Shown: positions 2,318 through 37,017 of the stretch, in pieces | Position numbering within the stretch: the first letter of the stretch is position 1 | How the letters are laid out: each line of letters starts with the position of its first letter | NCBI GenBank assembly: GCA_944391085.1 | Contig: CALXSE010000011.1 | Location: 4,012 to 68,011, forward strand | Origin: an uncultured Kiritimatiellota bacterium | GTDB lineage: Bacteria > Verrucomicrobiota > Kiritimatiellia > RFP12 > DVOR01 | Length of the DNA stretch: 64,000 bases | Reading direction: 5' to 3' | Notes under the pieces: generated by a model | The model's database searches: none | What the model was told of the DNA's origin: nothing | Seen by the model: the letters and a program-made list of their open reading frames with translations, nothing else | Position numbers and translations under genes: made by a program

Positions 2318-2318
2318 G

Positions 2319-3035
2319 TCAGAGTCCTTCCGTGAGCGTGAGGGCCCCCAGCCGCGCCACGCAGCGGGCGACGGCCGCGGCGTCGAGGACGGCGGGGCCG
2401 AGGGTGAGGGCGGAGACCAAATCCAGATGCGAGCAGACGAGGATTTCATCGACGTGCGCCGACGCGTCGGCGAACTGCGGCCCGGCAAAGCAAAGCACCC
2501 CGCGCAGCGCCTCGGGGCAGACCTCCGCGGCGCGGGAGACGGCGTTGACGGCGCGGCGCACCTGCTCGATGGGCGAGCTGCTGAGGGGGCGGCCGTTGGC
2601 CAGGATCTGCGCGCCGGAGACGGAGACCTCGCCGCTCCAATGCTTCGTCTCGATGACGAAGAGGCCCTGCGGGCCGACGGCCACGTGGTCGACGTCGCGC
2701 CCATCGGGCAGGAGCACGCCGTTAAGGACCGTCCAGGCGGCGGGCAGGTGGGCCAGCTCGCCGGCCACCATCTCCTCGCCGCGCGCGCCCTTGAAGAAGC
2801 CGTAGACCAGCGCGGGCTGGCGCCTGCGGTACGCCGCGAACCCCGCGACGGCCGCGGCCAGCGCCGCCGCGCCCGCCCACCACGGCACGAGCCCGGCGCC
2901 GCCCACCGTCAGCCCCACGCCCGCGCCGAAGGCGAAGCCGAAGGCTGCCACCGGCCAGAGGACGCGCCTGAGGCCCCTGCGGCGCGCGGCGTCTCCGGGG
3001 ACGCCTTTCATCGTGGCTCTGGAACGAAGCGGCAT
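2319..3035 (-). CDS. NERD (nuclease-related domain) membrane-anchored protein
   Basis: 238-aa ORF. Two N-terminal TM helices are followed by HVAVGPQGLFVIETKHWSGEV, typical of NERD domains. The start could instead be M9 at 3011. Confidence 0.7.
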   Translation of the reverse strand: MPLRSRATMKGVPGDAARRRGLRRVLWPVAAFGFAFGAGVGLTVGGAGLVPWWAGAAALAAAVAGFAAYRRRQPALVYGFFKGARGEEMVAGELAHLPAAWTVLNGVLLPDGRDVDHVAVGPQGLFVIETKHWSGEVSVSGAQILANGRPLSSSPIEQVRRAVNAVSRAAEVCPEALRGVLCFAGPQFADASAHVDEILVCSHLDLVSALTLGPAVLDAAAVARCVARLGALTLTEGL

Positions 3036-3047
3036 GGCGGGCCTTTC

Positions 3048-4151
3048 TCAGGGCAGTTTTCGGAACAGCGCCGCCGCCGCCGCCCCGAAGACGATGCAGG
3101 GCAGGGAGACGGCGAGCGCAGGCTTGATGACGTCGGCGTTGGAGAGGGACATCGACGCGGCCGTGAGCACGTAGTAGGAGAGGAAGAGCCCCAACGCCAA
3201 CAGGATGCCGCGGAAGACCGACTGCCGCCCCGAGGCGATGCCCGCGGGGATGGCGAAGAGCGTCACCAGCACGATGGAGAAGGGCGCGGCGTAATGGTTG
3301 TAGGTGACGTAGGAATCCTCGTTCTTCTGGCGGGTGGACATCCCGCTCTGCTCGCGGATCTCGCGGTTGGCCTCACGGTCGCCGACCGAGGCCAGGGAGA
3401 GATCCGAGAGGTTCTGCACCAGGATCTGCTGGGGCGTCTCGGGCGCGTCGTACAGCGCCAGGGAGGGGAACGTCTCGGGCGCGCCCTCCTGGTCGTTGAG
3501 CTCGTTGTAGCGCGTGCGGCGCACGCCGCCGAGCAGCCACCACGCGCCGTCGAGCCACCGGGCGAGGGGCGCGGCGTAAGCCACGCGCTGCGAGCCGTCC
3601 GGGCGGAAGAAGGTGACGCGGACGTCCCGGAGCGTCTCCGGATGCTCCGGCGAGAGCTCGCCGATGATCCAGCTGTGGTCGCCCCGCGGCGCGAAGAAGC
3701 CCCCGGGCATCGCCTCGCGCCCCGTCGCGCGGAAGTCGGAGTTCTTGATGGCCATGGCGCGGGCGGCGGCCGTGGGCTTGTAGAGCTCGGTGTTGGCGAA
3801 GGAAAGCCCCGCGGCCACGAAGGCCGCCAGCAGGATGGGCGCGGCGATGGTGCCCATGCCGATGCCGCCGGCGCGCATGGCCACCAGCTCGCTGTGCCGG
3901 CAGAACTGCCACATGGTATAAAGCGTGGAGAGCAGGAAGACCGCCGGGAGCAGCCACTCCAGGTACATCGAGAGCGTCCCCGCCAGGAAATCGAACGCCA
4001 CGCGCCAGGTGACGCTCGACTTCGGGTCGAAGCAGGCCCCGATGAGGTCAAAGCTCATGAAAAGCAGCGTCAGCGCGCAAAGCCCCACCAGGCAGATGGT
4101 CGCCGGCACCGCGAAGGAGCGCAGGACATAACGGAACAGGATGCCGCTCAT
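3048..4151 (-). CDS. LptF/LptG family permease (YjgP/YjgQ)
   Basis: Internal ATG at 4151 (MSGILFRYVLRSFAVPATICLVGLCALTLLF) within ORF 3048..4646. Topology is multi-TM, a large periplasmic loop, then C-terminal TMs. ATGA overlap with the upstream gene. Confidence 0.75.
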   Translation of the reverse strand: MSGILFRYVLRSFAVPATICLVGLCALTLLFMSFDLIGACFDPKSSVTWRVAFDFLAGTLSMYLEWLLPAVFLLSTLYTMWQFCRHSELVAMRAGGIGMGTIAAPILLAAFVAAGLSFANTELYKPTAAARAMAIKNSDFRATGREAMPGGFFAPRGDHSWIIGELSPEHPETLRDVRVTFFRPDGSQRVAYAAPLARWLDGAWWLLGGVRRTRYNELNDQEGAPETFPSLALYDAPETPQQILVQNLSDLSLASVGDREANREIREQSGMSTRQKNEDSYVTYNHYAAPFSIVLVTLFAIPAGIASGRQSVFRGILLALGLFLSYYVLTAASMSLSNADVIKPALAVSLPCIVFGAAAAALFRKLP

Positions 4152-9914: not shown

Positions 9915-10532
9915 TCAGCGGAGGGCGGCCCAGCGGTCTTGGAGGCGACGGATGGCGTCGTAGGGCGCGGGGTCGCGGCAGACGGCGCGGACGACGGCGA
10001 AGGCGGTGGCGCCGGCGGCGGCGACGGCGGGGAGGCGCGCCTCGTCGATCCCGCCGATGGCGATGGTGGGCCAGGGGGCGGCGCGGATGATGCGCCCGGC
10101 CTCGTCGGGGCCAAGGGTGGGATCCGGGATGGCTTTGGTGGGGGTGGCGTAGAGGGGGCCGACGCCGATGTAGTCGGGGGAGACGGCCCGGGCGGCCTCC
10201 ATCTGGGCATGGGAATGGGTGGACAGGCCGAAGAGGCGGAGCGCGGGGAAGGCGGCGCGGGCCTCGGGGAGCGGCATGTCGCCCTGGCCGAGGTGGACGC
10301 CGTCGGCCCCGGCCTCGGCGGCGAGCGCGGGGTCGTCGTTGACGATGAACAGGGTGCCAGTGCCGCGGGTAAGGGCGCGCAGGCGGCGGGCGGTGGCGAG
10401 GACGTCGGCGCGGGGGGCGCGCTTCATGCGCAATTGGAGGTAGCCGACGCCGGCCTTGACGGCGGCTTCGGTGACGGCCTCATAGCTGGTGACGGGGTCG
10501 GTGACGACGAGGCAGAGTCCGGAGAGTGTCAT
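9915..10532 (-). CDS. thiE: thiamine-phosphate synthase
   Basis: 205 aa. Motifs YLQLRMK...VHLGQGD...GLSTHS...DYIGVGPLYATPTK...IAIGGI. Confidence 0.9.
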   Translation of the reverse strand: MTLSGLCLVVTDPVTSYEAVTEAAVKAGVGYLQLRMKRAPRADVLATARRLRALTRGTGTLFIVNDDPALAAEAGADGVHLGQGDMPLPEARAAFPALRLFGLSTHSHAQMEAARAVSPDYIGVGPLYATPTKAIPDPTLGPDEAGRIIRAAPWPTIAIGGIDEARLPAVAAAGATAFAVVRAVCRDPAPYDAIRRLQDRWAALR

Positions 10533-10712
10533 GGTTGGGCTGGGGAGGTTGAAGGCTTAGGCGCCCCTGCGGGAGACAGAGGCCCGGCGAGGGCGGGCGC
10601 ACAAACGGCCGGGACGCGCCCCGCCGGGTCTCCGCGCCAACGCGGTCGCCCCGGGCGGCAGGGAGAGGCGGGCGGCAGGCCTTGCCGCCCGCGCCCGTCC
10701 CCAGGCGCGCCC

Positions 10713-11495
10713 TCAGGGACGGAGATCCTGAAGGATGAGCTCGGCGACCTTCTTGCCGGATTTGAGCATCCCGCCGAAGATGGGGCCCATGCGGAAGCCG
10801 CCCTGGACGTTGTTGGCGGCCATGCCCGAGGCATAGAGCCCGGGGTAGAGGCGCTTGGTGTTGAGGACGGTGGTGCGCTCGCCGTCCTCCATCCACATGG
10901 GCTTCTCGCCCATGATGCCGCCGGTGGGGGAATCGACCTTGATGCCGGCCTTGTCGACGGCCTTGTGGACGATCTCGGAGGGATGGCCGGTGCCGTCGAG
11001 GACGGCGCGGGCGGTGACGACGACGGGATCGACGTGCATCTCCAGCCGGCGGACGGGGTTCCAGTTGACGACGAGGCCGCAGACCTTGCCCTCGCGGACG
11101 CAGATATCCTCGACGCACATGGTGTTGAAGATGACGGCGCCGGCCTTGCGCGCGCCGAAGATGAGCCCGGAGGCCATCTCGACGGAGTCCAGGGTGTGGT
11201 AGCCGTTGCCAAGGTCGCGGGTGGAGACGCCGAAGTCGTGGAGGATGGGCGCCGCGTCGTCCTGGACGACGACCTCGTTGAACAGCATCCCGCCGCCCCA
11301 GGTGCCGCCGCCGGGGGCGAGCTTGCTCTCGAAGACGGCCACCTTGAGCCCGGCCTGCGCCAGGTAACGGGCGGCGACGAGGCCGGAGGGGCCCGCGCCG
11401 ACGATGCCGACGTCCACCGCCAGGTGGCGCTCGAACTTCTCGAAGAAGGCGCGCACAATCGCGCCGGAAATGGTCTCTTCCATCACGTCGGCCAT
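10713..11495 (-). CDS. thi4: Thi4-family thiazole synthase (sulfide-dependent ADP-thiazole synthase type)
   Basis: [19 protein letters not shown] is an FAD/NAD fold motif. [31 protein letters not shown] is also present. The ATG at 11495 has an AAGGAG RBS 6 nt upstream. The track start at 11501 is a TTG. Confidence 0.85.
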
Positions 11496-11511
11496 GGCCA
11501 ACTCCTTTCTG

Positions 11512-11539
11512 GGAAAAGAAAAGCCCCGGCAAGCGGGGC
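11512..11539 (-). terminator. intrinsic terminator after tig
   Basis: Minus strand GCCCCG-cttgc-CGGGGC followed by TTTTCTTTTC. It abuts the thi4 RBS. Confidence 0.65.
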
Positions 11540-11558
11540 GTTTGGGAAGCGGCGGGCC

Positions 11559-12851
11559 TCAGAGCACCGCGCAGGCAGGCACCAGGGCGTTGAGCACCTT
11601 CTGGCAGAGGGCGTCCTCAAACACCTGCTCCAGGCGGCCGTTGTTGCGCAGGCGGCGGACGACCTCCTTGGCGGGCATCCGCAGGCGCTCGGCCAGGGAC
11701 GTGATGGCGCCGTCGGCCTCCTGGGCGGAGAGCTTGAGGTCGCGGGCCTTGGCGGCGGCCAGCAGGGTGTAGTGGCGGCGCAGGCGCTGGGCGGCGCGCT
11801 TCTCGGCCTCGGCGTAGACGGGATCCTTGCGCAGGCCCTCGGGGTCGTCCTTGAAGCGCTCGAGGGGGTTGGACTGGTCGCTGGAGAGCTCGTCGTACGT
11901 CCAGCGGTCAAGCACCGTCTGGGGCAGGTCGAAGGAGACGGAGGCGTCGATGGCGGCGATGAGGTCGTTGAGGGCGCGCTGGCCTTCCTCGTACTGGCGG
12001 GTGAGGGCCAGGCTCTCCTTGACGTTCTGGCGGACCTCGTCCATGCTCTTGGCGTTGAAGCGGGAGACGACCGCCGCGTCGTCGGCGGGGACGTACTTGC
12101 GCAGGGTCTTCAGGGTGAGGTCGTAGTGGACGGCCTTGCCGGCGAGGTCGGCGACGCGGAAATCCGCCGGGAAGGCGACGTCGAGCGCGAAGGCCTCGCC
12201 GGGCTTCTTGCCGCGGAGGGCCTCGGCCAGGCCGGGGATGAAGGCGTCCGTGCGCAGCTGCATCCAATAGCCGGCGTCCTCGGCGTAGCGCGCGGCGGCG
12301 TCGGAGAGCCCCTCCTTGGAAAGGTCGGAGGTGAAGGAGACCTCGGCCAGGTCGTCCTCGGCGGCGGCGTCCTCGCCCTCGGCGTTGCGGAAGGAGGCGG
12401 CCATCTTGCGCACGTCGGCAAGGCGGGCCTCGAGCATCTCGTCGGTGACCTCGGCGTCGATCTTGCGGACATGCCACTTGGCCTCGTCGGGGAGGGCGAC
12501 GGCGGGCTCGAGGTCGCAGACGACGGTGGCGGAGGCGGAGGCGTCCTCGGCCTTGAAGTCCTTGAGGTCGACGACGCGGGCCAGCTCGCGGCCCTTGTCC
12601 TTGGCGGCCTTGGCGGCGGCGTCGACGAAGAGGTTGACGATCTCCTGGTTGGAGGATTGCTCGATTTCCTTGCCGTAAAGCGCCTGGATGCGCGCCGGGG
12701 GCACCTTGCCGGGGCGGAAGCCGGGCAGGCGCACGCGCTTGGCATACTCGCCGCGGACGCGCTTGCGGATGGGGACGATCTCCTCGGCGCCCGCCTCGAC
12801 GCTGACAATCACGCGGCAGGGGCCTTCCTCTTTGACAATCTCGCTCTTCAT
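11559..12851 (-). CDS. tig: trigger factor
   Basis: FRPGKVPPARIQALYGKEIEQ is the ribosome-binding TF signature region, and the PPIase and C-terminal domain layout follows. The ATG at 12851 (MKSEIVK) has an AAGGA RBS. The track start at 12875 is a TTG. Confidence 0.9.
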   Translation of the reverse strand: MKSEIVKEEGPCRVIVSVEAGAEEIVPIRKRVRGEYAKRVRLPGFRPGKVPPARIQALYGKEIEQSSNQEIVNLFVDAAAKAAKDKGRELARVVDLKDFKAEDASASATVVCDLEPAVALPDEAKWHVRKIDAEVTDEMLEARLADVRKMAASFRNAEGEDAAAEDDLAEVSFTSDLSKEGLSDAAARYAEDAGYWMQLRTDAFIPGLAEALRGKKPGEAFALDVAFPADFRVADLAGKAVHYDLTLKTLRKYVPADDAAVVSRFNAKSMDEVRQNVKESLALTRQYEEGQRALNDLIAAIDASVSFDLPQTVLDRWTYDELSSDQSNPLERFKDDPEGLRKDPVYAEAEKRAAQRLRRHYTLLAAAKARDLKLSAQEADGAITSLAERLRMPAKEVVRRLRNNGRLEQVFEDALCQKVLNALVPACAVL

Positions 12852-12923: not shown

Positions 12924-14519
12924 TCAGCGCGCCGCCGCGCGGGCCAGGCAGCACCCGCCCCCGCGGAGCCGCGCAAAGAGGGCGCTGGCGCGGTAGGCCG
13001 CCGGCAGGTCATACCCAAAGTCGCGCACGTTCCCGCCGTCGGCCTCGTAAAAGCCGCAGGGCTGCAGGCGCCCGTCGTGCGCCAGGAAGCAGAAGCCCGC
13101 GCCGGCCAGGCACCCGTTGAGGCGGCTGCGCGGCGTCAGCCCCCGGGCCTTGGCGCGGGCCAGCACGCGCGGCTCGCAGGTGACATGGACGGGCAGCGCG
13201 CCCTCGGCGTCAAGGTCGAGGATCTCGTCGAGCGCGGCCTCGGTCTGCGCGTCGTCCAGGCACTGCCCGGCGATGGCCGCGCCGCGCCCGACGGGCACCA
13301 GGAAAAAGTAGTCGATGCGCGTGGCGCCCTGGGCCAGCGCCAGGTCGCGCATCGCCCGGAGCGTGCCGCGGGTGGCGCGGGTGACGGTGTGGTTCAGCTG
13401 GAAGGGCAGCCCCGCCTCCCGCGCGGCGGCCATCGCGCGCAGGGCCATGTCGAAGGCCCCGGGCACGCCGCGGAAGGCGTCGTGCGCCGCCGCGTCGGGC
13501 CCGTCGAGGCTGATGGAGAGGGCGCGCACGCCGGCGGCCTTAAGGGCGCGCAGGCGCCCGGCCGTGGCGAAGCGGCCGCAGGGGGCGAGCACGCAGGGGA
13601 ACCCGAGCGCCGTGGCGCGGCGGACGATGTCCTCGAGGTCGTCGCGGTACATCGGCTCGCCGCCGGTGAGGATGAGCAGGGGCTTGCCGCCCCCGGGATA
13701 GGCCGCCGCGAGGGTCTCGAGCACGCGGCCGCAGGCCTCGGCGGAGAGCTCGCCGGCGCAGGCGGCGTCCCGCGCGGCGCCGCGGCAATGCCTGCAGGCC
13801 ATCGGGCAGCGCCGCGTCAGCTCCCACGCCAGCACGCGGATGGGCAGGGGCGCGGGGGCGAGGGCCTCGACGGCGCGCAGGGCCGCGGGCAGGTCGCCGT
13901 AGCCCGGGAGGAGGCCCTCGGCGTCGGCAAGCTCCCGGGGCGTCTTCCAGCCGGCGACGGAGACGGCCAGGCAGGGCAGGCCCGCGGCGTGGGCGGCCTG
14001 GATGTCCTTGGGCGTGTCGCCGACGAGGAGGCAGGGCTCCGCGCCCAGGTCCCGGGCGCGTCGGCAGGCCAGGCGGGCGAGGGCGTCGCGGTCGGTGTCG
14101 TCGCCCGCGTAGGCGCCGAAGTCGAAGAGGTCGGCCAGGCCCGCATGGATGAGCTTGGCCCACGCGGTGGCGCGGATGTTCCCGGTGACGACGCCCAGCA
14201 GGAAACCGCGGCCGCGCAGGGCCTCGAGGAAGGCGCGCGCGCCGGGGTAGACGGCGGGCGGCGTTTGGGCCAGGCGCGGCTCAAGGCGCTTGGCCAGCTC
14301 GATGTAGAAGCGTTCCTCGCGCGCCGGGGTGGAGGCGACGCCGCAGGCCCGGGCCAGGTCGCGGACGACGCCGGTGTCGGTGGCGCCGACGAAGGAGACA
14401 GACGCCACGTCCACCCCCACCCCATAGGCCGCGCGGAAGGCCTCGGCGAAGGCGGGGCGGCCGATGCCTTTGGCGTGGAGGAGCGTGCCGTCGATGTCAA
14501 AGAGGATTGCGCGTCTCAT
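12924..14519 (-). CDS. fusion protein: HAD-superfamily phosphatase (N) plus radical SAM/SPASM enzyme (C)
   Basis: The N-terminal part has FDIDGTLL...VVTGN...VGDTPKDI (HAD motifs I-IV). This is followed by ELTRRCPMACRHC (CX3CX2C), LILTGGEPMYR, and the SPASM-like block GCLAGAGFCFLAHDGRLQPCGF. It is a single uninterrupted frame. Confidence 0.8.
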   Translation of the reverse strand: MRRAILFDIDGTLLHAKGIGRPAFAEAFRAAYGVGVDVASVSFVGATDTGVVRDLARACGVASTPAREERFYIELAKRLEPRLAQTPPAVYPGARAFLEALRGRGFLLGVVTGNIRATAWAKLIHAGLADLFDFGAYAGDDTDRDALARLACRRARDLGAEPCLLVGDTPKDIQAAHAAGLPCLAVSVAGWKTPRELADAEGLLPGYGDLPAALRAVEALAPAPLPIRVLAWELTRRCPMACRHCRGAARDAACAGELSAEACGRVLETLAAAYPGGGKPLLILTGGEPMYRDDLEDIVRRATALGFPCVLAPCGRFATAGRLRALKAAGVRALSISLDGPDAAAHDAFRGVPGAFDMALRAMAAAREAGLPFQLNHTVTRATRGTLRAMRDLALAQGATRIDYFFLVPVGRGAAIAGQCLDDAQTEAALDEILDLDAEGALPVHVTCEPRVLARAKARGLTPRSRLNGCLAGAGFCFLAHDGRLQPCGFYEADGGNVRDFGYDLPAAYRASALFARLRGGGCCLARAAAR

Positions 14520-14527
14520 GGCCGCAG

Positions 14528-14538
14528 ATTATAGCACA
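14528..14538 (-). promoter_or_regulatory. extended -10 (TGTGCTATAAT) 8 nt upstream of the HAD/radical-SAM ATG
   Basis: Perfect TATAAT preceded by TG. Implies a leaderless or near-leaderless mRNA. Confidence 0.55.
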
Positions 14539-14541
14539 GCC

Positions 14542-16257
14542 TCAGCGCAGGGCCTCGGCGGCGCGCAGGAGCGCGGCGTCGAGCGCCTCGAGGTCGTCCT
14601 CGTAGGGGCAGCCCGGCCCCATGCCGCGCGCGACGGTGAAGCGTGCGAGGGCCTCCTCCAGCGGGGCGAGGGCCCCGGGGCGGCCGAGCGCGGCGGCCCT
14701 GGCGCGGAGGAGGCGGATCTTCTCGAAGGTCTCCACGCCGTTGCGCAGGGCCTCCCAGCGCAGGCTCGGGCGGTCGCCGGGGTAGACGAGCGAGGTGTCG
14801 GCGGCGGGCCAGTTGGCGGGGCGGTAATCCTGGCTGGCGAAGGGGTTCTCGGGCCAGGAGTGGTAGGCCCAGCGGAGGAAGCCGTCGAGGCCATAATGCG
14901 CGGCGGCGGGCAGGAGCCACTCGGCCTCGGCCAGGGCGGAGTGGGCGAAGGTGTTGGGGCGCGGCTGGGCGCAGCAGACGTAGAAGGTGGTGCGCTTGCC
15001 CTGCGCGCGGCGCGCGGCGGCCAAAGGCGCAAGGCGCTCGCTGATGTCCAACCCGTACGAGCAGTCGTCGAAGTCCGCGGTGACGGCGCTGGGCGCGTTG
15101 CATGCCGCGACGATGCCGAGGGTGGGCGCGTGGCGGCGCACCACCTCGAGCGTGGGGCGGAAGAGCGCGTCGGGGCGCTCGTCCATCGCCAGGCGCACGC
15201 GCCCTTCCCAGCCCTTGGCGCGGACGTGGGCCACGAGCGCCTCGAGGAAGGGCCCCCAGAAGGCCTCGTACTCGGGCGTGCCGGGGGTGAGCCGGGGCGC
15301 CACCGTGCGCCCCTGCGCCTCGTCGTGGTAGGCGAAGGTGAGCGACCAGGGCAGGAGGCCGTAACAGTTCACCGTGGCCTCCGCCAGGCCGGCCTCCTCG
15401 CTCATGAAGGCGACCCAGCGGTCGAAGACGGAGAAGTCATACGCCCACGAGCCGTCCTTGCGCCGGGTGACGCGCACCATCGCGCCGAAGGCGTCGTAGG
15501 TCTGCCGGTCCCACGCCTCGTCGATGAGGGTGGCGGTGATGGTCTTCTGGCCCGCGTCGGCCAGGCGGCGCATGGCCGGGCGCAGGAGGGCGAAGTGCGC
15601 GGGCGACCACATCGGCACGTCGTGCCAGCGGGCGACGGCGTCGGGGTGCTGCCAGATGTCCAGGTGGCAGGCCCACTCGCGCGGCGGCGGGAGGGTCTCG
15701 GGGTCGATCGTCAGCGTGACGGGGGCGGAGAGGGGCGTGCCGTTGACGCGGAGGGCGAGCGTGCCCGTGGCCCGGCCCGGCGCGGCGTCGGCGGGGATAT
15801 CCACGGTCAGCACGAGGGGCCGCGTCACGCCCGCGAAGGTCGTCTGCGCCGTGCCGTCGAGGATGTCGGCGAAGAGGACGCCCCCGCCAGTCGTGTAGCG
15901 CACCAGATCCAGCCGCACGGGGATTTCGCGGCCATCCTCGGCGCGCAGCGCGCACGGCTCCAGGCGGAGCTCGCTGAAGCCGGCGGGGCTCTCGATGAGC
16001 ACCTGCGCGCAGACGCGCTCGCCGCGCCAGCCGCGCATCGCCAGCCCGGGGCGCTTGGGCGCGGGGACCGCGCTCGGCACGTCGCGCCCGAAGCGCTGGC
16101 GCATGGAGACGGGCGTCAACCAAGGCTTGGCCCCGGCCCGGAGCACCGCGGCGGGGCGGCCCTGCGGGTCTTTGCCGTCGGGCTCGTAGGCGGGGTGGCG
16201 GGCCGGCTCGGCCAGGGCGGAGGCGGCGAGGAGGCAGGCGAGCGGGGCGAGCTTCAT
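14542..16257 (-). CDS. secreted DUF4091-type glycoside hydrolase-like protein (GH123-like)
   Basis: Internal ATG at 16257 with signal peptide MKLAPLACLLAASALA. The architecture (beta-sandwich followed by a TIM-like region) and the C-terminal block FLRWAYHSWPENPF are typical of DUF4091 proteins. Confidence 0.65.
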   Translation of the reverse strand: MKLAPLACLLAASALAEPARHPAYEPDGKDPQGRPAAVLRAGAKPWLTPVSMRQRFGRDVPSAVPAPKRPGLAMRGWRGERVCAQVLIESPAGFSELRLEPCALRAEDGREIPVRLDLVRYTTGGGVLFADILDGTAQTTFAGVTRPLVLTVDIPADAAPGRATGTLALRVNGTPLSAPVTLTIDPETLPPPREWACHLDIWQHPDAVARWHDVPMWSPAHFALLRPAMRRLADAGQKTITATLIDEAWDRQTYDAFGAMVRVTRRKDGSWAYDFSVFDRWVAFMSEEAGLAEATVNCYGLLPWSLTFAYHDEAQGRTVAPRLTPGTPEYEAFWGPFLEALVAHVRAKGWEGRVRLAMDERPDALFRPTLEVVRRHAPTLGIVAACNAPSAVTADFDDCSYGLDISERLAPLAAARRAQGKRTTFYVCCAQPRPNTFAHSALAEAEWLLPAAAHYGLDGFLRWAYHSWPENPFASQDYRPANWPAADTSLVYPGDRPSLRWEALRNGVETFEKIRLLRARAAALGRPGALAPLEEALARFTVARGMGPGCPYEDDLEALDAALLRAAEALR

Positions 16258-25643: not shown

Positions 25644-25655
25644 TTGTGTTATCCT
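25644..25655 (+). promoter_or_regulatory. extended -10 (TTGTGTTATCCT), divergent from the SDR promoter
   Basis: Motif match. Would drive the structured RNA at 25662..25786. Confidence 0.4.
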
Positions 25656-25661
25656 GATGGC

Positions 25662-25786
25662 ACGCCGTGGGAGAGCCACGGCGACACCCGCACAGTGCTG
25701 CGCAAGTTGTCCGTTCGAACCTGAGAAATTCGCGCTTTAGGCAACAAGACAAGGCAAGGTGCGCCAATTTTGGCGCATCCCTTTTC
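25662..25786 (+). ncRNA. candidate small RNA or attenuating leader upstream of the PEP-CTERM protein gene
   Basis: Lies downstream of the putative -10 box. Contains hairpin GCCGTGG-gagag-CCACGGC. Ends in the 9-bp hairpin GGTGCGCCA/TGGCGCATC followed by CCTTTTCG. The CDS begins 190 nt further on. Confidence 0.35.
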
Positions 25787-25975
25787 GTGTTCCTAAAGAG
25801 GCTTCTCAGGGCCTGAACGGAGACCGGCGAGGGGTGCGTCCCTTTTGGGGGCGGCCCCGGCGGCGACGGCGGGCGGCGCACGCGGGCGCGTGTCCGCGGC
25901 GCGACAGCCGAAGGGCCCACCTCCCGCCCCAGTCCCCCTCGGCCACCCTCGGGGCGGAAGGAGCAATCCAACCAC

Positions 25976-26617
25976 ATGAAACGCGCATACTTCGCCGCGG
26001 CCTTCGCCGCCGTGGCCCTTTCCGCCGCTCAGGCGGTGACCTTCGACTGGGTGGAATCAAGCGTGAGCAACAATTCCCCGGTGTCGATCGGCAATGGCTA
26101 CAGCGCCTCCACGGGCTTCACCGTCGCGGTCGTCCTCTCCGGCGGCTCCCTGCCTGCGGAGGACAGCTACCAAACGCTGCTGACGCTCAGGAACAACGCG
26201 ACCTCGAACCAGCAGGTGAGGCTGCAAGTCGGCTCGGACGGGACGTTCTACACCGAGACCAGAATCGGCTCTGATTGGGGCGGGAACACGCCTGTGACCA
26301 CAGCGCCGGACTTCTCCTGGAACGGCACCGACTCCCTCGTCGCGGCCATCGTCTTCGGCGATACGACGATCTCGTTCTACGCCAACGACACGCTGCTCGG
26401 CACGATGGCGACGCCGGACAGCTGGAAGACCGGCGATTGGACGGATGTCTTCGTCGGCGCCCAGCCGTACGGCGCCACGTGGAGCGGCGACGCCCAGCTG
26501 GCCGTGGCGGCCGGCGTGGCGACCGGCGACGAAATCGCCGCCCTGCCCGAGCCGACGGCGCTTGCCCTGCTGGCCCTCGGCGTGGCCGGCGCGGCGCTCC
26601 GCCGCCGCGTGGCGTGA
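25976..26617 (+). CDS. PEP-CTERM sorting-domain protein with a LamG/concanavalin-like body
   Basis: Signal peptide MKRAYFAAAFAAVALSAAQA. The C-terminus LPEPTALALLALGVAGAALRRRVA fits PEP, a TM helix, then an Arg cluster. A GGAAGGAG RBS is present. Confidence 0.85.
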   Translation: MKRAYFAAAFAAVALSAAQAVTFDWVESSVSNNSPVSIGNGYSASTGFTVAVVLSGGSLPAEDSYQTLLTLRNNATSNQQVRLQVGSDGTFYTETRIGSDWGGNTPVTTAPDFSWNGTDSLVAAIVFGDTTISFYANDTLLGTMATPDSWKTGDWTDVFVGAQPYGATWSGDAQLAVAAGVATGDEIAALPEPTALALLALGVAGAALRRRVA

Positions 26618-30751: not shown

Positions 30752-31243
30752 ATGGAAGCAGAGGAAGTCGTCGTCCGCCGCGCCACCCTCGAGGACGTGT
30801 TCGCCATCCACCGCCTCATCCAGAGCTACCCCCACGAGCTCATCCTCAGGCCCGTCAACAACCTCGTCGAGAACATCGACCGCTTCACCGTCGCCGTGCG
30901 CGGGCGCGAGCTCATCGCCTGCGCCGGCTGGCAAATCCTCCCCGAGATCGGCTGCCCGGAAGGCGCCACCGTCGAGCTCCAATCCGTCGCCGTCGCCAAG
31001 GCCTGGCGCGGGCGCGGCATCGGCAAGCGCCTCGTCCGCTTCGTCCTCCAACGCATCGACGGCTTCAAGCCCGCCCAAGCCCTCGTCCTCACCTTCCAGC
31101 CCGAGTTCTTCGGCTCCCTCGGCTTCCGCGAGGTCCCCAAGACCCAGATCATCCACAAAATCTACCGCGGCTGCGTCTACTGCACCAAACACACCAACCC
31201 TTTCACCTGCCCCGAGATCGCCATGGCCCTCCCCCTCCGCTGA
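30752..31243 (+). CDS. GNAT family N-acetyltransferase (short ArgA-like)
   Basis: Acetyl-CoA binding block QSVAVAKAWRGRGIGKRLV. A CAGGAG RBS is present. Confidence 0.8.
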   Translation: MEAEEVVVRRATLEDVFAIHRLIQSYPHELILRPVNNLVENIDRFTVAVRGRELIACAGWQILPEIGCPEGATVELQSVAVAKAWRGRGIGKRLVRFVLQRIDGFKPAQALVLTFQPEFFGSLGFREVPKTQIIHKIYRGCVYCTKHTNPFTCPEIAMALPLR

Positions 31244-31268: not shown

Positions 31269-33776
31269 TCACCAGCCGGCGGGGGATTCGCCGGCGTGGC
31301 GGTCGACGCCGGCGTAGGAGAGGCTCGCGTCCTCGTAGCGCTTGAAGTTCAGCACGGCCAGGTTCATCAGCTCGTCGTTGAAGAGGCGCAGGGAGACGAG
31401 CAGCCGGAAATCTTCCAGCGTCAGCCCCGTCACCCGCTCGAAGAGCGCCGTCTCCAGCTGCTCGATCACCTCGCGGAGCGACCGCTCGCGATAATCCGTC
31501 AGATACATGAAGACGGGGAGGCGCGCGGCGAACTTGATGAGCTTCTCCTGCACCTGCCTGCGCAGGCTCTTGAGCTCCTTCTCCTCCGGCGTCTCCCTGG
31601 GCCGCTCGCGCGCCTTGCCCGGCCCGTCCCGGGATTCGCGCTTGCCCTTCTTGATGGCATCCGTGCGGTTGATGATGGTCTCGATGGTGTCCCGGCCGAG
31701 GTTGCGGTCGGCGATGATCTTCCCGATGGCGTCCAGCGCCGCCGGGTTTCCCTGCACGCGCCTGAGCGTCTCGTTGTCCACGTTCACGAGCAGGGCGCTC
31801 TGCCAGCGGCGGGCCAGGAGGGTGGCCGCGTCGCCGGTGAAGGCGAGCTCCAGCACCTGCGCGGCGTTGATGGGGGTGAGCCTCCCGCCGTCGGAATAGA
31901 GGATGGGGAGGAAATGGATGAACTCCCCTACGCGCGCCTCGTCCGTCTGCGGGGCCGTCTCGTTGCAGCTCAGCTTGCCGCTGTACTCCGCCACCTGGCG
32001 CAACGCCCGGTTCGGCGCGAAGTCCAGCACGTAGCACTGCCGCTTGATGATGACCTCCCCGCCCTGCGCGTCGCGCGTCGTCCACGGGCTCTGCACGCGG
32101 AAGGCCGCCTGGAAATAGGTCTCCGGGCTCTGCAGGTTGCGCAACATCAGGATGCCGCCCCACGGCCGTACCGTCACGCCCGTGGTCAGCTTGCCGCACG
32201 TCAGCGTGATGGTCTTCGAGGCCATCGGGTCCTCCATCCGCGCCTCCACCGCCTCCAACGCCGCCGCGCCCATGCCCACATGCTTCCCCGCGCACACGAT
32301 CACCCCAAAGTCCCGCCACCACGCGTTCCGCTTCGCGCGCAGCAGCGCGGCCATCGCCTCGCACGCCGCCACGCTCGGCAGGAACCACACCGAGTGCCGG
32401 AGCGCGTCGGCCAACGCCCCGTGCGCGAAGGGCAGCGCCACGGGCTCGTGGCTCCTCAGCCCCTCCACCTCGCTCGGCAGGTAACGCCCCCGCAGGTAAT
32501 CCAGCCACTGCTGCACGTTCTCCTCCCACACGAACCGCGGCCGCCCGTCCGCCTCCTTCGCGGTCGAGAAGAAGGTGTTCAGGTCAAAGGTATCGAACTC
32601 CCCCTGCTCCGCCACCTTGCGGATGGCCTCCGGCAGGCGGTAGGTCAGCATCACCATCTGCGGCAACGCCGCATAGGGGTTCGGCCCCGGGCCCTTCCAC
32701 GCCGCCTTGGCCCGCTGCTCATCCGCGTACGTCCACCCATAGACCTGCTCCTCGATGAACTCCCCGCTCGCCAGCGACCGGAAGGGCGTCCCGGAAAGAT
32801 AAAGGTAACGCTCCGCCCGGATGGGCAGATCCGCCTCGGACAGGCGCCCCGCGCCCGTGGGCGCCGCCCCCTCCGCGGCCTCTGCGGCCTCCACCTCCTT
32901 CTCCTCGTCCTCCTTCGCGAAAAGCTCCTGCGCCCGCTCCCGCCACGCGCCGTAGTGATACTCGTCAAAGATGACCAGATCCCACCGCTCCTCGCGCACC
33001 CACCTGTGCTGCTCCTTGATGCCGCCGAGCGCGTTCAGCCCCAAAAAGTCCTGGAACGACCCAAAGCAGACGATGGGCCGCCGGCCGTCCGCGGCCAGAT
33101 ACTGCTCCTCCAGGCCCGGCGCCGACGGGTCGCCGTCCCGCCGCCGGATGAACTGCCACCCCTCGAAATCCACATGCGTCAGGCAATCCTCCTCCCACGC
33201 GCTCACCACCGCCGGCTTGAACGTGAGGATAAGGATCCGCCTGAACCCCATCGCCTTCGCCAGCTCATAGGCCGCGAAGGTCTTCCCGAAGCGCATCTTC
33301 GCGTTCCACAGGAAGCGCGGCCTCGTCCCCGGCTCCTCCCGCGCCTTCCGGCGGAAGTAATCCGCCGTCACCCGCACGGCCTCGGCCTGCTCCGGGCGCA
33401 TCGCGAAGTCCCGCGTCCGCCCCCGCTGGAACTCCCGCCGGTTGCGCGCCGCCACGATGGCCGCGCGCACCACCTCCACCCCACACCGAACCCACTCCCC
33501 CGCAAGCCGCCGCACCCCCTGCCGCCTCAGCTGGCGAAAGACCGCATGGTCGCCGAAGGTCGTCCCATCCCGCCGCATCGCCGACTCCCGCAACACGACC
33601 TCATAGATGGCGTGCGGCATCTTGATGGCCGCCACCTGCTCGCGGATGCGTATCTCCACCTCCCGCTCCGTGTAGCCCACCTTCAGCAGCCCCTCGTAAC
33701 CCTCCGCCTTCAGCCGGTAGGCATAGATCGTCGGCCGCACCGCGGCCCGCCCCTCAAGCACAAACGCTTCCGCCAT
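31269..33776 (-). CDS. T5orf172/GIY-YIG-like domain fused to an SF2 (DEAH, type III Res-like) helicase; putative restriction/defence subunit
   Basis: The N-terminal TIYAYRLK...LLKVGYTEREVEIRIREQ...GEWVRC is a T5orf172-type pattern. Helicase motifs are FGKTF (I), VIFDEYHYG (II), LSGTPF (III) and QAAFRVQSP (VI). The start lies 1 nt after the methyltransferase stop. Confidence 0.8.
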   Translation of the reverse strand: MAEAFVLEGRAAVRPTIYAYRLKAEGYEGLLKVGYTEREVEIRIREQVAAIKMPHAIYEVVLRESAMRRDGTTFGDHAVFRQLRRQGVRRLAGEWVRCGVEVVRAAIVAARNRREFQRGRTRDFAMRPEQAEAVRVTADYFRRKAREEPGTRPRFLWNAKMRFGKTFAAYELAKAMGFRRILILTFKPAVVSAWEEDCLTHVDFEGWQFIRRRDGDPSAPGLEEQYLAADGRRPIVCFGSFQDFLGLNALGGIKEQHRWVREERWDLVIFDEYHYGAWRERAQELFAKEDEEKEVEAAEAAEGAAPTGAGRLSEADLPIRAERYLYLSGTPFRSLASGEFIEEQVYGWTYADEQRAKAAWKGPGPNPYAALPQMVMLTYRLPEAIRKVAEQGEFDTFDLNTFFSTAKEADGRPRFVWEENVQQWLDYLRGRYLPSEVEGLRSHEPVALPFAHGALADALRHSVWFLPSVAACEAMAALLRAKRNAWWRDFGVIVCAGKHVGMGAAALEAVEARMEDPMASKTITLTCGKLTTGVTVRPWGGILMLRNLQSPETYFQAAFRVQSPWTTRDAQGGEVIIKRQCYVLDFAPNRALRQVAEYSGKLSCNETAPQTDEARVGEFIHFLPILYSDGGRLTPINAAQVLELAFTGDAATLLARRWQSALLVNVDNETLRRVQGNPAALDAIGKIIADRNLGRDTIETIINRTDAIKKGKRESRDGPGKARERPRETPEEKELKSLRRQVQEKLIKFAARLPVFMYLTDYRERSLREVIEQLETALFERVTGLTLEDFRLLVSLRLFNDELMNLAVLNFKRYEDASLSYAGVDRHAGESPAGW

Positions 33777-33777
33777 C

Positions 33778-35286
33778 TCACGCCTCCATCGGCTTCACCA
33801 TACCCTCAATGAACGCGACCTCTTCGTCCGTCAGCCCATACTTCGCGTACAGCTCCGCGTCCGTCCACGGCCTCGAAAAGTCCTGCAGGGGGACAAGCCG
33901 ATAAACGCGTTTTGTCGCATGTTGAGTATTTTTCAAGAGTAAGATTAGGAATCGACAGAAACAAGTAGACATATACTGTTTGACATTTTCTGCGACCCTC
34001 TGGTCTTTGTATACACCTATTACAAGATAGGTCTCAGAGCAACACGATTCGGGTTCCGCAAGAAAAGGTTTTCCTATCACTTGATAGGGGAAATCGCCAC
34101 GTTCGCCATAAGCATAGGAAATCATTACCTTCCAACGGTCTATCCACGCTTGTTTCTCGGGCACGTCCGCGCGGGCAATGTAACGGGGTTCCTTTGTAGC
34201 GTTTTTACTGGCATACAGGCGGACATCTCCTTTTTCTTTGCCGACATGTCCCAATACCTTCGTCTCCAGGCCAAAGGGCCGTCTTTCACTCACCAGCAAA
34301 GCGAAGGAATGTTCCTTTTTCGCGCGCACCTTCTCCACGATGGACAAAGCCTCGTTGAAACGGATGAAGGCCTCCGACCAAGGGAAAAGCAATGTGCGCC
34401 GGGTCTCGGAGGTCGCCCGCTTCCCGACGTTGCGGAAGGTGCAAAGCCCGCGATAGTCGCGTTGCCAATGGAAATAACAAACCCCGCCCGAGATATCCAC
34501 CCCATCGCCGAAGCAAATCTTGGAGTCGAAGTAATCCACAATCGTTTTCAGGCGTTCGTCGCGGAGCATCGTCTCACGGAACCGAACGAGGCCTTTTCCC
34601 CCCGTGAACCAACGGGCGGGAATAATCATGACAAGGTGATTCGGATGCAGTGCCTTGGCCTGTTCGACGAAGAGGTTGTAGATGGGCGTGGCGCTGGCGC
34701 TGTCGCTGCCGTCATCCAGTTGATACGGGGGGTTGCCGATGATGACGTCGAACTTCATGTCGAAGAGCCTTTCTGGGTTGACGCCATGGATAAAGGCGTA
34801 GGCGTGGGATTCGGCGCGCTTCCCGAAGACCTCCGCGGAGGCGCCGCAGAGCGTACACCTGCCGCCCTTCCAGGCGTGCGCGGCGGGCGGCAGCGGGATG
34901 TTGCCCTCGGGAGTGTCGAAGTGGGAGATGGCGTATTCGCCGTCGGCGGACTTGGTGCAGTAGACGGTGCGGCGGGAGGTGAGGGCGGTGAGCTCGGTGA
35001 TGGCCAGCCCAAAGAGCTGCCGGTGGAAGATGTGGTCCAGGCGCTCCTGCAGGTCTGGGAAGGTCGGTTCCAGCCCCTTGATGAGGCGTTTGGCGATTTC
35101 GCGGAGGAAGACGCCGCTCTTGCAGCAGGGGTCGAGGAAGGTGGCCGAGGGGTCGGAAAAGAGCCCCTGCGGCAAGAGGTCGAGCATGGCGTTGGCCACG
35201 CGCGGGGGCGTGAAGACCTCGTCGTTGGACAGGTTGGCCAGGCACTCCAGCACGTCCGGGTTGCGCACAATCTTCTCCGTTTCCAT
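33778..35286 (-). CDS. gamma-class N6-adenine DNA methyltransferase (Eco57I-type methylase domain) with a C-terminal recognition-like region
   Basis: EVFTPPRVANAML (motif X), FLDPCCKSGVFL (motif I) and DVIIGNPPYQ (motif IV). The 3' half is visibly AT-richer than the genome. Confidence 0.85.
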   Translation of the reverse strand: METEKIVRNPDVLECLANLSNDEVFTPPRVANAMLDLLPQGLFSDPSATFLDPCCKSGVFLREIAKRLIKGLEPTFPDLQERLDHIFHRQLFGLAITELTALTSRRTVYCTKSADGEYAISHFDTPEGNIPLPPAAHAWKGGRCTLCGASAEVFGKRAESHAYAFIHGVNPERLFDMKFDVIIGNPPYQLDDGSDSASATPIYNLFVEQAKALHPNHLVMIIPARWFTGGKGLVRFRETMLRDERLKTIVDYFDSKICFGDGVDISGGVCYFHWQRDYRGLCTFRNVGKRATSETRRTLLFPWSEAFIRFNEALSIVEKVRAKKEHSFALLVSERRPFGLETKVLGHVGKEKGDVRLYASKNATKEPRYIARADVPEKQAWIDRWKVMISYAYGERGDFPYQVIGKPFLAEPESCCSETYLVIGVYKDQRVAENVKQYMSTCFCRFLILLLKNTQHATKRVYRLVPLQDFSRPWTDAELYAKYGLTDEEVAFIEGMVKPMEA

Positions 35287-35301
35287 GGCACACTCCTTCC
35301 G

Positions 35302-36021
35302 TCAAAGATCCAAGGTCATCTGGACAACGCCCGGGGCGACCGCCTCCACGGCGCGGCGTACCCCGGGCGGCGGGGCGTCGGCAGACAAGGGCGCGAGCGC
35401 ATGGTAGGGCACGGGGGGAAAGGCGTTGTTGGGGAGGGCCGCGAACGGAAGACTGTCCGAATCGTCGAGCAAATCGGCGAGGGAACACTCCGCGCGGGCC
35501 ACGGCGTCGCCCTGCCACCGCCACTCGGTGAAGACGATCGGCGGGTGGGTCTCCGTCCCCTCGGGGTGGAGCGTATCGCCCAGGACGATGTTCCGCTCCA
35601 GGACAAAGCGGGCGGCGGCCAGATAGACGGGGAATTGACGTTGCCCGCGCAGGCGCTTGCCGTGCGCCGCCTCCCAGCGGGCGAGGAGCGCGGCGCGGCA
35701 GGCGGCCACGTTGTCGGGCAGGATGTCGATGCCGTAGAGCGAGGTCAACGCCTCGAAGGCCGCGCGGCGGAAGCGGGCCGTATCGTTGCGGCCGCCGACC
35801 AGCCGGCGCGCCGCGCGCAGTTTCCGCCTGAAAATCTCGACCAGGAAGTTGCCGTCGCCGCAGGCGGGCTCAAGGAAGCGGGCGCCCACGTCGGCGCATT
35901 GGGCGGCCACCAAATCGCACATGTCGCGGACGAGCCAATCGGGGGTAAAGACCTCCCCATGGTCCCGCACGCGTTTACGGGACTTGATCAGTCTCTGTTC
36001 CGTCTCCCTGGCCTTCGCCAT
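35302..36021 (-). CDS. methyltransferase-like protein: SAM-binding N-terminal module only, motif IV degenerate
   Basis: EVFTPDWLVRDM (motif X), FLEPACGDGNFL (motif I) and LYGIDI (motif II). Where NPPY is expected the sequence reads THPPIV. ATG at 36021; the track start at 36024 is a TTG. Confidence 0.7.
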   Translation of the reverse strand: MAKARETEQRLIKSRKRVRDHGEVFTPDWLVRDMCDLVAAQCADVGARFLEPACGDGNFLVEIFRRKLRAARRLVGGRNDTARFRRAAFEALTSLYGIDILPDNVAACRAALLARWEAAHGKRLRGQRQFPVYLAAARFVLERNIVLGDTLHPEGTETHPPIVFTEWRWQGDAVARAECSLADLLDDSDSLPFAALPNNAFPPVPYHALAPLSADAPPPGVRRAVEAVAPGVVQMTLDL

Positions 36022-36051
36022 CAAAAAAGCACGCCTTCCTTGTCCGTGCTT
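36022..36051 (-). terminator. terminator-like hairpin plus U-run immediately before the first gene of the R-M-like operon
   Basis: Minus strand AAGCACG-gacaaggaagg-CGTGCTT followed by TTTTG, then the ATG. It shares 4 nt with the long stem at 36048..36166. Confidence 0.4.
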
Positions 36052-36166
36052 TAGCTGAGGCCTTCGGAGCCCTTAAAAGAACACGCACAAAGAAGACGTG
36101 CCACAACGGCACGCCTTGCTCGACATGTTGCCCTTTTAATGAAAGTTCCGAAGTTTCAGCTAAAGC
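36048..36166. repeat. 119-bp imperfect inverted-repeat element (about 25 bp pairable arms plus an apical hairpin), low GC
   Basis: GCTTTAGCTGA (36048-58) pairs with TCAGCTAAAGC (36156-66). CTTCGGA (36062-68) pairs with TCCGAAG (36147-53). TTAAAAG (36073-79) pairs with CTTTTAA (36133-39). An apical hairpin CGTGCC/GGCACG lies at 36097-36113. Confidence 0.6.
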
Positions 36167-36221
36167 AACCGTATCTGCGCAAAGCGCAAACAAAGCCGCG
36201 GCTTTCCCGCGACGTGCCTTC

Positions 36222-36233
36222 AAGGTAACAAAA
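36222..36233 (-). promoter_or_regulatory. possible extended -10 (TTTTGTTACCTT) for the R-M-like operon leader
   Basis: Weaker motif match about 200 nt upstream of the ATG at 36021. Confidence 0.3.
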
Positions 36234-36264: not shown

Positions 36265-37017
36265 TCAAACGCGCAGGGGGCGGGCGAGGGCAAGGACGTA
36301 GACGCGCTTGGCGCCGGCGCGGCGCAGAAGCCGGGCGCAGGCGTCGCAGGTGGCGCCGGTGGTGAGGACGTCGTCGACAAGGAGCAGCGTCTTGCCGCGG
36401 AGGCGGTCGGGATGGGCGGGGCGGAAGGCGGCCTCGGCGTTGCGCAGGCGCTCGGCGCGGCCCAGGCGCGTCTGCGAGGGGACGCCGGTGGAGACGCGGC
36501 GCAGGAGCCCGGCGCGGCAGGGGAGGTGGAGCTGGCGGGCCAGCTCGCGGGCGAGCAGCTCGGCCTGGTTGTAGCCGCGGGCGCCGCGCTTGCGCCGGAG
36601 CATGGGGACGGGGACGACGGCGTCGATGCGGGGGCGCAGGGGGGCAAGGCGGTCAAGGTAGAGGGCCACGAGCAGGCGCGCGAGGTCGCGGGTGAGCCAG
36701 ATGCCGCCGTGGTATTTGAAGTCGTGGACAAGCCGACGGACGTCGCCCTCGTACCGCGCGGCGACGAAGGCGCGCTCAAAGGCGGGGCGGTGGCGGAGGC
36801 AGTCCGAGCAGACGAAGTCGGGCCCCTCCGGCATGGCCGACTCGGCGCCGCAGATCAGGCAGGAGGGGTTGCGCCGCAGGGGCAGGCGCCCCAGGCAGTC
36901 CAGGCAGACGTAGCCATCGCCGGAGGGGCGGCCGCAGAAGAGGCAGTCGCGCGGGTAGAGCGCGTCGAGCGCCCAGCCGCCCCACGTGCGCAAGGTCAGA
37001 GCGAGACGCCGAAGCAT
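36265..37017 (-). CDS. comF: ComF family protein (phosphoribosyltransferase domain)
   Basis: Internal ATG at 37017. Contains an N-terminal 4-Cys zinc ribbon (CLFCG...CLDC...CLICG...CSDC) and the PRTase block LLLVDDVLTTGAT. Confidence 0.8.
   Translation of the reverse strand: MLRRLALTLRTWGGWALDALYPRDCLFCGRPSGDGYVCLDCLGRLPLRRNPSCLICGAESAMPEGPDFVCSDCLRHRPAFERAFVAARYEGDVRRLVHDFKYHGGIWLTRDLARLLVALYLDRLAPLRPRIDAVVPVPMLRRKRGARGYNQAELLARELARQLHLPCRAGLLRRVSTGVPSQTRLGRAERLRNAEAAFRPAHPDRLRGKTLLLVDDVLTTGATCDACARLLRRAGAKRVYVLALARPLRV

Follow-up and report, generated by a model that had tools for sequence, protein, structure and literature searches.

A conserved three-gene cluster from an uncultured Kiritimatiellota bacterium as a candidate ATP-dependent restriction-modification system

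The 64,000-nucleotide stretch analyzed here, which we call the window, covers positions 4,012 to 68,011 of contig CALXSE010000011.1 (assembly GCA_944391085.1) from an uncultured Kiritimatiellota bacterium. An initial annotation had singled out in it an accessory restriction-modification or defence-like module of non-canonical layout, consisting of three genes that we name, in order of transcription, HM (a small methylase-like protein), MT (an adenine methylase) and HEL (a nuclease-motor protein). We examined this trio and the leader that precedes it, and we conclude that the trio is probably a restriction-modification system driven by ATP. As originally described, the three open reading frames (ORFs) are tightly packed on the minus strand, with 15 nt between HM and MT and 1 nt between MT and HEL, and our coordinates agree with that description (Table 1). 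They are flanked by a GNAT acetyltransferase ORF (30752-31243, plus strand) and by a ComF-like ORF ending at 36265 (minus strand), and the same flanks enclose the trio in a relative, locus L004. For HM, a TTG one codon upstream of the ATG offers an alternative start (35302-36024, 240 aa). Since database searches returned thousands of homologs for each of the three proteins, with very low E-values, they are real genes rather than ORFs that arose by chance in a genome rich in GC.

Table 1. Positions of the trio, its domains and the leader motif in the window
Feature	Position	Strand	Description
HEL ORF	31269-33776	minus	835 aa
HEL T5orf172/MUG113 domain (GIY-YIG superfamily)	33432-33740	minus	aa 13-115
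HEL superfamily 2 (SF2) motor	31977-33407	minus	aa 124-600; GKT 164-166, DEYH 271-274, SGTP 328-331, QAAFRVQ 556-562
HEL C-terminal region	31269-31976	minus	aa 601-835; conserved, mostly helical
MT ORF	33778-35286	minus	502 aa; Eco57I-type gamma-class N6-adenine methylase (predicted); motifs X, I, GNPPYQ, C-terminal recognition domain
Swapped low-GC cassette in MT	33920-34705	minus	about aa 194-455, about 0.8 kb; variable recognition-domain loops inside
HM ORF	35302-36021	minus	239 aa from ATG at 36021; stand-alone methylase-like protein, motifs X and I kept, NPPY replaced, no recognition domain
Structured leader RNA motif	36022-36224	minus	about 200 nt (203 nt); ends at HM start codon
Second copy of leader motif	25653-25848	plus	upstream of PEP-CTERM protein ORF 25976-26617

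The first gene had been described as a degenerate methylase paralog that heads the operon and keeps only the half that binds S-adenosylmethionine (SAM), and the alignments bear this out. Throughout the family HM retains motif X (GEVFTP), motif I (FLEPACGDGNFL), YGID and NIVxGDxL, and at the position expected for the catalytic NPPY two alignments show an invariant P-I-V-F-x-E-W; the recognition domain is absent. We rejected the idea that HM is the decayed fragment of an older methylase gene, as it belongs to a large stand-alone family (1619 clusters at 50% identity, E<=1e-10) with its own invariant motif and a conserved length, mostly 190-290 aa among the best 150 members. Its AlphaFold2 model is of good quality (predicted local distance difference test, pLDDT, of 83). 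Comparison of HM with Protein Data Bank (PDB) sequences gave weak, motif-level matches, and in weak profile matches HM resembles the N-terminal part of the BREX methylase PglX. Taken together, HM appears to be a catalytically dead methylase-like partner that has kept its SAM-binding motifs and lost NPPY. The combination of intact SAM-binding motifs, a lost NPPY and a gene that stays separate even where the other two are fused (see below) suggests a non-catalytic regulatory or bridging subunit. Two representatives of the family, P0439 (532 aa) and P0519 (500 aa), are roughly double the normal size and have their HM part at the N-terminal end; these may be fusions and could hint at the partner of HM.

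MT had been called a gamma-class NPPY methylase, and the profile searches leave it in that class. It matches the Pfam families Eco57I (4.6e-29) and N6_Mtase as well as the PADLOC model MTase_II (2e-44), and it carries motif X (NDEVFTPP), motif I (FLDPccKSGVF) and GNPPYQ in that order, followed by a C-terminal recognition domain. We therefore predict a sequence-specific gamma-class N6-adenine methylase with its recognition domain fused at the C-terminus. According to a conservation profile, the C-terminal half is conserved and interrupted by three hypervariable blocks (aa 281-300, 341-380 and 421-440). Between the SAM-binding half and NPPY, at aa 109-160 (34806-34961), lies a conserved cluster of Cys and His residues (YC...H.W..G.C..CGAS...E.HAY..IH), which may be a zinc-binding element.

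The comparison with L004 adds a further layer to MT. Whereas HM and HEL of the window are 96.6% and 93% identical to their L004 counterparts, MT reaches only 70%, and the divergence is concentrated in one stretch: DNA identity is 51-65% at 33920-34705, whereas the remaining 100-nt blocks of the trio are for the most part 84-100% identical (mostly more than 90%). At the protein level, identity is 50% over aa 194-455 and 88-93% in the flanks, and this holds against both L004 and the homolog P0248. The stretch is GC-poor in the window and in L004 alike. A recognition-domain cassette of MT has thus been exchanged between near-identical strains, as would be expected of a specificity determinant under diversifying selection. 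The exchange also accounts for the compositionally foreign parts that had been noticed in the module: the dip is real, with GC falling from about 0.70 to 0.50-0.57 at 33500-34750 in the composition profile, but it reflects a low-GC specificity cassette swapped within MT and not a foreign island.

HEL joins two recognizable parts, and both had been proposed from its sequence. The helicase motifs FGKTF, DEYH, SGTPF and QAAFRVQ are all present in the 835-aa protein and invariant across the family; the Pfam model ResIII matches the motor weakly in the window protein and in 20/20 family members. A Foldseek search with the HEL model returned as best matches the Snf2-family remodelers Chd1, CSB, Mot1 and ISWI and the Type ISP enzyme LlaBIII (4xqk), with E-values of about 1e-11 to 7e-11. 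For LlaBIII (E 7e-11) the TM-score is about 0.35, with a model pLDDT of 68.5, and a match at the sequence level is lacking. On the strength of this model, the motor resembles the double-strand DNA translocases of the Snf2 and Type ISP groups. The N-terminal domain is matched by T5orf172 in 16 and by MUG113 in 18 of the 20 aligned relatives scanned with Pfam, and Y18, Y20, K32, G34, T36, R43, E94 and W95 are invariant in the family alignment, so that the catalytic residues of a GIY-YIG nuclease, R43 and E94 here, are in place. The GIY-like Tyr, the K-[IV]-G-x-T strand and the beta-beta-alpha core expected of the T5orf172 branch are present as well, and the predicted topology (beta-beta-alpha-beta-alpha-beta-alpha, pLDDT 75-89) fits the expectation. 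The domain can thus be assigned by its conserved residues to the T5orf172 branch of the GIY-YIG superfamily, as a putative nuclease. In Odn of phage ICP1, T5orf172 domains that retain the Arg and the Glu are proven nucleases (PMC8263062).

Next to this domain we looked for a second nuclease hidden in the C-terminus of HEL. The initial annotation had seen no PD-(D/E)xK motif, and the Pfam, NCBIfam and PDB sequence searches gave no match to one either; from about residue 668 the model (about 170 aa, of low-to-moderate confidence) is almost wholly helical. Because this end is nearly all helix and has no family match, we discarded a hidden PD-(D/E)xK nuclease; aa 601-835 may instead be a docking surface for MT or HM. 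About half of the listed HEL homologs are longer (950-1066 aa; P0024, P0030, P0097, P0109, P0118 and others) and carry, after a low-complexity linker, a C-terminal domain of about 50 aa like the Tudor domain of PcrA/UvrD, which is missing from the window protein; in one of these longer homologs the Pfam model PcrA_UvrD_tudor gave a weak match.

The trio is far from being a rarity of this genome. Taking one genome per species, we confirmed at least 593 relatives in Bacteroidota, Bacillota, Actinomycetota, Pseudomonadota, Verrucomicrobiota, Spirochaetota, Fibrobacterota, Elusimicrobiota, Chloroflexota and other phyla, and more than 8000 protein clusters (90% identity) match HEL. Among the matches listed, the nearest named relative of HEL belongs to Candidatus Spyradenecus faecavium (phylum Lentisphaerota; 84% identity). 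Gene order was assessed in the 61 loci that extend at least 2.4 kb upstream of the helicase gene, and HM, MT and HEL follow one another on one strand in 57 of them. Three of the four loci without the full trio end at a contig edge; the fourth, L071, lacks HM, and upstream of its MT (386-3576) lie two ORFs, one of 727 aa with a part that by eye looks like a cytosine-5 methylase and one of 334 aa, which may encode a restriction enzyme. The trio is thus a conserved module and not a rare one, present in several hundred species at the least and also on plasmids.

Relatives with HEL proteins 68-83% identical carry the trio in differing housekeeping neighborhoods, so it moves as a compact cassette. 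In Olsenella profusa (L001/L002) it is adjoined downstream by a Gabija-like pair (an OLD/TOPRIM-type ATPase and a UvrD-like helicase), and an AbiEi/AbiEii pair is found there too (Gabija-like and AbiE genes at 10004-12743 and 13970-15642); since a relaxase and integrases lie nearby, we take this region to be a defence island on a mobile element. The family also occurs on plasmids of Enterococcus, Lactococcus and other lactic acid bacteria. Plasmids of Enterococcus and other lactic acid bacteria carry a two-gene form in which an HM-like gene, its product 35% identical to the window HM and with the same F-S-E-W, lies just upstream of a gene for a 1456-aa protein whose single chain runs from the T5orf172 domain through the motor to a complete MT homolog. 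Moreover, 18 of the 57 trios (L041, L068, L031, L018, L052, L015, L033 and L037 among them) hold 0.4-3 kb of extra DNA between MT and HEL. The passengers, labelled by eye, are RhuM-like, YhcG-like (similar to the DUF1016 family), Abi-like and toxin-antitoxin-like ORFs, an ATPase-like ORF with a small partner ORF, and an insertion sequence transposase.

Searches of the defence libraries returned parts but no named system. The PADLOC and NCBIfam collections gave no system-level match for the trio, and against BREX, DISARM, MADS, Hachiman and other PADLOC systems we obtained only short, weak matches to the N-terminal methylase motifs of PglX and mad2, and HamB at E 0.028; DISARM and Hma protein models gave no match, and HEL matched none of the BREX, DISARM and Hma models. 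Only generic helicase and methylase families were found in PHROGs, the RefSeq names of the parts are equally generic, and a PDB sequence search with HM, MT, HEL and the fused relative yielded nothing useful beyond the weak motif matches of HM. One PADLOC model, PDLC03626 (Type IIG restriction enzyme-methyltransferase, 1359 positions), is matched by HEL at 148-803 (E 1e-25) and by MT at positions 1010-1352 (E 1.5e-43). The two proteins match separate parts of it because a fused nuclease-motor-methylase form exists. PADLOC, to which the initial annotation had pointed, therefore names no system, although a generic model covers the fused form; a Type IIG enzyme has restriction and methylase in one polypeptide, and in the window two separate proteins match the model. 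Our literature searches found no description of the exact trio and no experimental study. The initial annotation had named, as grounds for rejecting its view, a match of all three proteins as a conserved trio to a family already classified; this applies only by half, the trio being conserved, but matched by no named PADLOC system and described in no paper that we found. Smith et al. had pointed out that related enzymes, equipped with helicase subunits and GIY-YIG nucleases, had yet to be studied (PMC3553950).

Upstream of HM, the initial annotation had described a structured leader. The 203 nt that precede the gene fold with a z-score of -4.57, and they contain a covarying motif, for which we built a covariance model (R1). 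In an alignment of 28 copies, both partners vary in 53 of the 63 predicted pairs, and 87% of the cells are paired, compared with 40-53% in slid controls. The Shine-Dalgarno-like AGGAAGG of the window leader sits within a predicted helix; the Shine-Dalgarno-like sequences of the trio loci are likewise inside one, and there the start codon marks the end of the motif. The trio comes with this motif in five Lentisphaerota-like loci, which differ in chromosomal site, and also in two loci that are more distant. Three accounts of the leader were discarded. It is not the terminator of comF followed by a promoter, because no sigma-70-like promoter was found and the hairpin that looks like a terminator (36195-36213) forms helix 2 of the larger covarying motif. 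A known RNA family was set aside for lack of an Rfam match. Nor is the motif specific to the trio, and in this respect the initial description needs an addition, since unrelated genes have it too: a second copy in the window precedes a PEP-CTERM protein gene, and metagenome copies precede ORFs identified by eye as glycosyltransferases, an MBOAT-like acyltransferase, a Type I-like methylase, a sigma-factor-like protein and a nuclease (further copies are at L003:979-1186, L013:194-408, L119, L103, L120, L160, L140 and elsewhere). The pattern scan of the metagenomes was unspecific, about 24 of 120 stretches being true copies, and the invariance that helix 4 seems to show is biased by the pattern used. 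We regard the motif as a candidate new cis-regulatory RNA of bacteria of the Planctomycetota-Verrucomicrobiota-Chlamydiota (PVC) type, separate from the trio.

Considering the proteins together, we think it likely that the trio is an ATP-dependent restriction-modification system of a widespread family that is experimentally uncharacterised; the domains, the fold predicted for the motor, the conservation of the trio, the occurrence of fused and split forms, the defence-gene and plasmid surroundings of relatives, the exchanged cassette of MT and the passengers between MT and HEL all agree with the defence-like module proposed at the outset. As the exact trio has not been described but its functional class is known, we read it as a variant of ATP-dependent restriction-modification and not as something categorically new. 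In the mechanism that we propose, MT, probably together with HM, would mark one adenine of a short asymmetric site in the host DNA. Where the DNA is unmarked, HEL would be recruited or activated by the methylase module bound at the site; it would pull the DNA through with ATP, and the T5orf172 domain would cut or nick at a distance from the site, for instance upon a collision or a stall. HM would most likely be a non-catalytic partner: it could make the decision to methylate or to restrict depend on the availability of SAM or on whether the site is methylated, or alternatively bridge MT and HEL. The order HM, MT, HEL would put methylation before restriction on entering a new host. A bolder version, which we hold to be less likely than not, is that the trio constitutes a mechanistically distinct type of restriction-modification, in which the dead, SAM-binding HM is the licensing switch that decides whether MT methylates or the GIY-YIG-type nuclease, carried by a Snf2-like translocase, attacks. 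Such a logic, not seen in Types I, II, III, ISP and IV, would have been overlooked in hundreds of species because the parts receive only generic annotations.

Several observations weigh against the restriction-modification interpretation. The window HEL does not match Pfam T5orf172 at E<0.1, and T5orf172 has a Lys where canonical GIY-YIG domains have their second Tyr. The HEL model is of moderate quality only (pLDDT 68.5), and the fold matches of the HM model, to the methylase domains of BsaXI, MmeI, LlaGI/LlaBIII and BrxX, are weak and not significant (E 0.2-1). The trio of the window is surrounded by housekeeping genes, with no mobility genes adjacent, and the dnmA-yeeB-yeeC cluster of Bacillus subtilis, a described relative, gave neither restriction nor phage defence under the conditions tested (PMC9973331). 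Lastly, we infer restriction, a methylated motif, translocation and cleavage in this family by analogy, and the role given to HM is a guess.

Some of these points feed other explanations. The trio might be a methylation-linked defence without cutting, comparable to BREX, in which the T5orf172 domain binds DNA or has a regulatory part and the motor blocks replication or remodels incoming DNA that is marked non-self. The likeness of HM to the N-terminus of PglX in weak profile matches and the Lys at the second Tyr of the putative nuclease, whose cleavage is presumed, lend themselves to it; however, Arg43 and Glu94 are invariant across phyla, T5orf172 proteins with both residues are active nucleases, and HEL is unmatched by the BREX, DISARM and Hma models, so we consider this explanation improbable. 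We give about as little credit to the view that the module has become a domesticated or decaying relic here, with MT serving as an orphan epigenetic methylase, as proposed for DnmA, beside a HEL and an HM that no longer restrict. The negative result in B. subtilis would agree with it, as would the fixed position of the module between housekeeping genes, the same in L004. Yet all three ORFs are intact and carry every family-invariant motif, HEL and HM look maintained by their 93% and 96.6% identity to L004 without frameshifts, and the recent swap of the recognition domain argues for ongoing selection on specificity. Least probable by far is an anti-restriction or DNA-establishment function for mobile elements, with a methylase-helicase that would shield DNA on its entry, as is thought of large methylase-helicases of plasmids or phages. 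The family does occur on conjugative and mobilizable plasmids and in the integrative element of Olsenella, but of the 81 plasmid records that match, 36 are non-mobilizable. The copies found are mostly on chromosomes, where they adjoin or enclose defence genes, and restriction is the better fit for both a nuclease-type domain at the N-terminus and a recognition domain that varies between alleles.

If the restriction-modification interpretation is true, the trio would be one of the more abundant families of ATP-dependent restriction still without biochemistry, it would bring a GIY-YIG-type nuclease among the translocating restriction enzymes, and it would allow the study of a degenerate methylase-like subunit in a tractable system, since nearly every locus keeps it as its own gene. 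The family is abundant and unstudied, and its seemingly obligatory degenerate subunit is unusual; nevertheless, its functional class is well known and its parts already bear generic annotations. On the practical side, methylase scaffolds with swappable recognition loops may serve specificity engineering, and the system would bear on genetic access to carriers among gut Bacteroidota, Bacillota and the PVC group.

It remains to place the trio among the systems already described. In Type III systems, Mod is a beta-class methylase, in which motif IV precedes motif I and the recognition domain lies in the middle, and Res carries a C-terminal PD-(D/E)xK nuclease. The initial annotation had likened the layout to Type III Mod-Res, and the trio does share with it a methylase gene upstream of a helicase-type restriction gene and the ResIII match on the motor. 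The comparison is nonetheless a poor one: there are three genes, MT is gamma-class by its motif order (X, I, NPPY), and the nuclease-type domain is GIY-YIG-like and N-terminal, in the nuclease-then-motor order of HsdR and the Type ISP enzymes, so we ruled out an assignment to Type III. Type I systems come nearer, with a gamma-class methylase and, in HsdR, a nuclease N-terminal to an SF2 translocase, as in HEL. RhuM and DUF1016 genes have also been reported between Type I core genes (PMC9881135), and similar-looking ORFs lie between MT and HEL. The trio differs from Type I in its nuclease fold, in HM, which has no Type I counterpart, and in lacking a specificity subunit as a separate protein, since MT carries the recognition domain as a fusion.

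The closest described relatives are the DnmA/YeeA-YeeB-YeeC cluster and the Type ISP enzymes. The former is also a three-gene cluster, in which a recognition domain is fused to a gamma-class adenine methylase and which further comprises an SF2 helicase and a T5orf172/GIY-YIG domain, and YeeA, YeeB and YeeC are found in defence islands. Its published architecture sets the trio apart: the methylase is a homolog of MmeI without the endonuclease motif, whereas MT is a 502-aa protein of Eco57I type; the helicase and the T5orf172 protein are separate, with T5orf172 at the C-terminus of YeeC, whereas HEL joins both with T5orf172 at its N-terminus; and an HM-like gene is not described there. Morgan et al. 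predicted that the helicase and GIY-YIG partner of MmeI-like methylases form a new restriction system (PMC2731913), and yeeAB of Vibrio protects against phage (bioRxiv 10.1101/2021.05.05.442762). As regards Type ISP (LlaGI, LlaBIII), sequence similarity to the PDB chains of these two enzymes is undetectable, and their single chain opens with an Mrr-type PD-(D/E)xK nuclease, where the trio has T5orf172/GIY-YIG. Moreover, HM is absent from Type ISP and almost always present in the trio family, and MT and HEL of the window are separate genes, MT being the first, though fused relatives exist on Enterococcus plasmids. These fused relatives share with Type ISP the order of nuclease, SF2 double-strand DNA translocase, gamma-class methylase and C-terminal recognition domain. 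LlaBIII is one of the best structural matches of the HEL model, and the fold matches of HM to the LlaGI/LlaBIII methylase domains are weak and non-significant. By analogy with these systems, the trio family seems to work on the same principles as Type ISP and Type I enzymes, with different parts.

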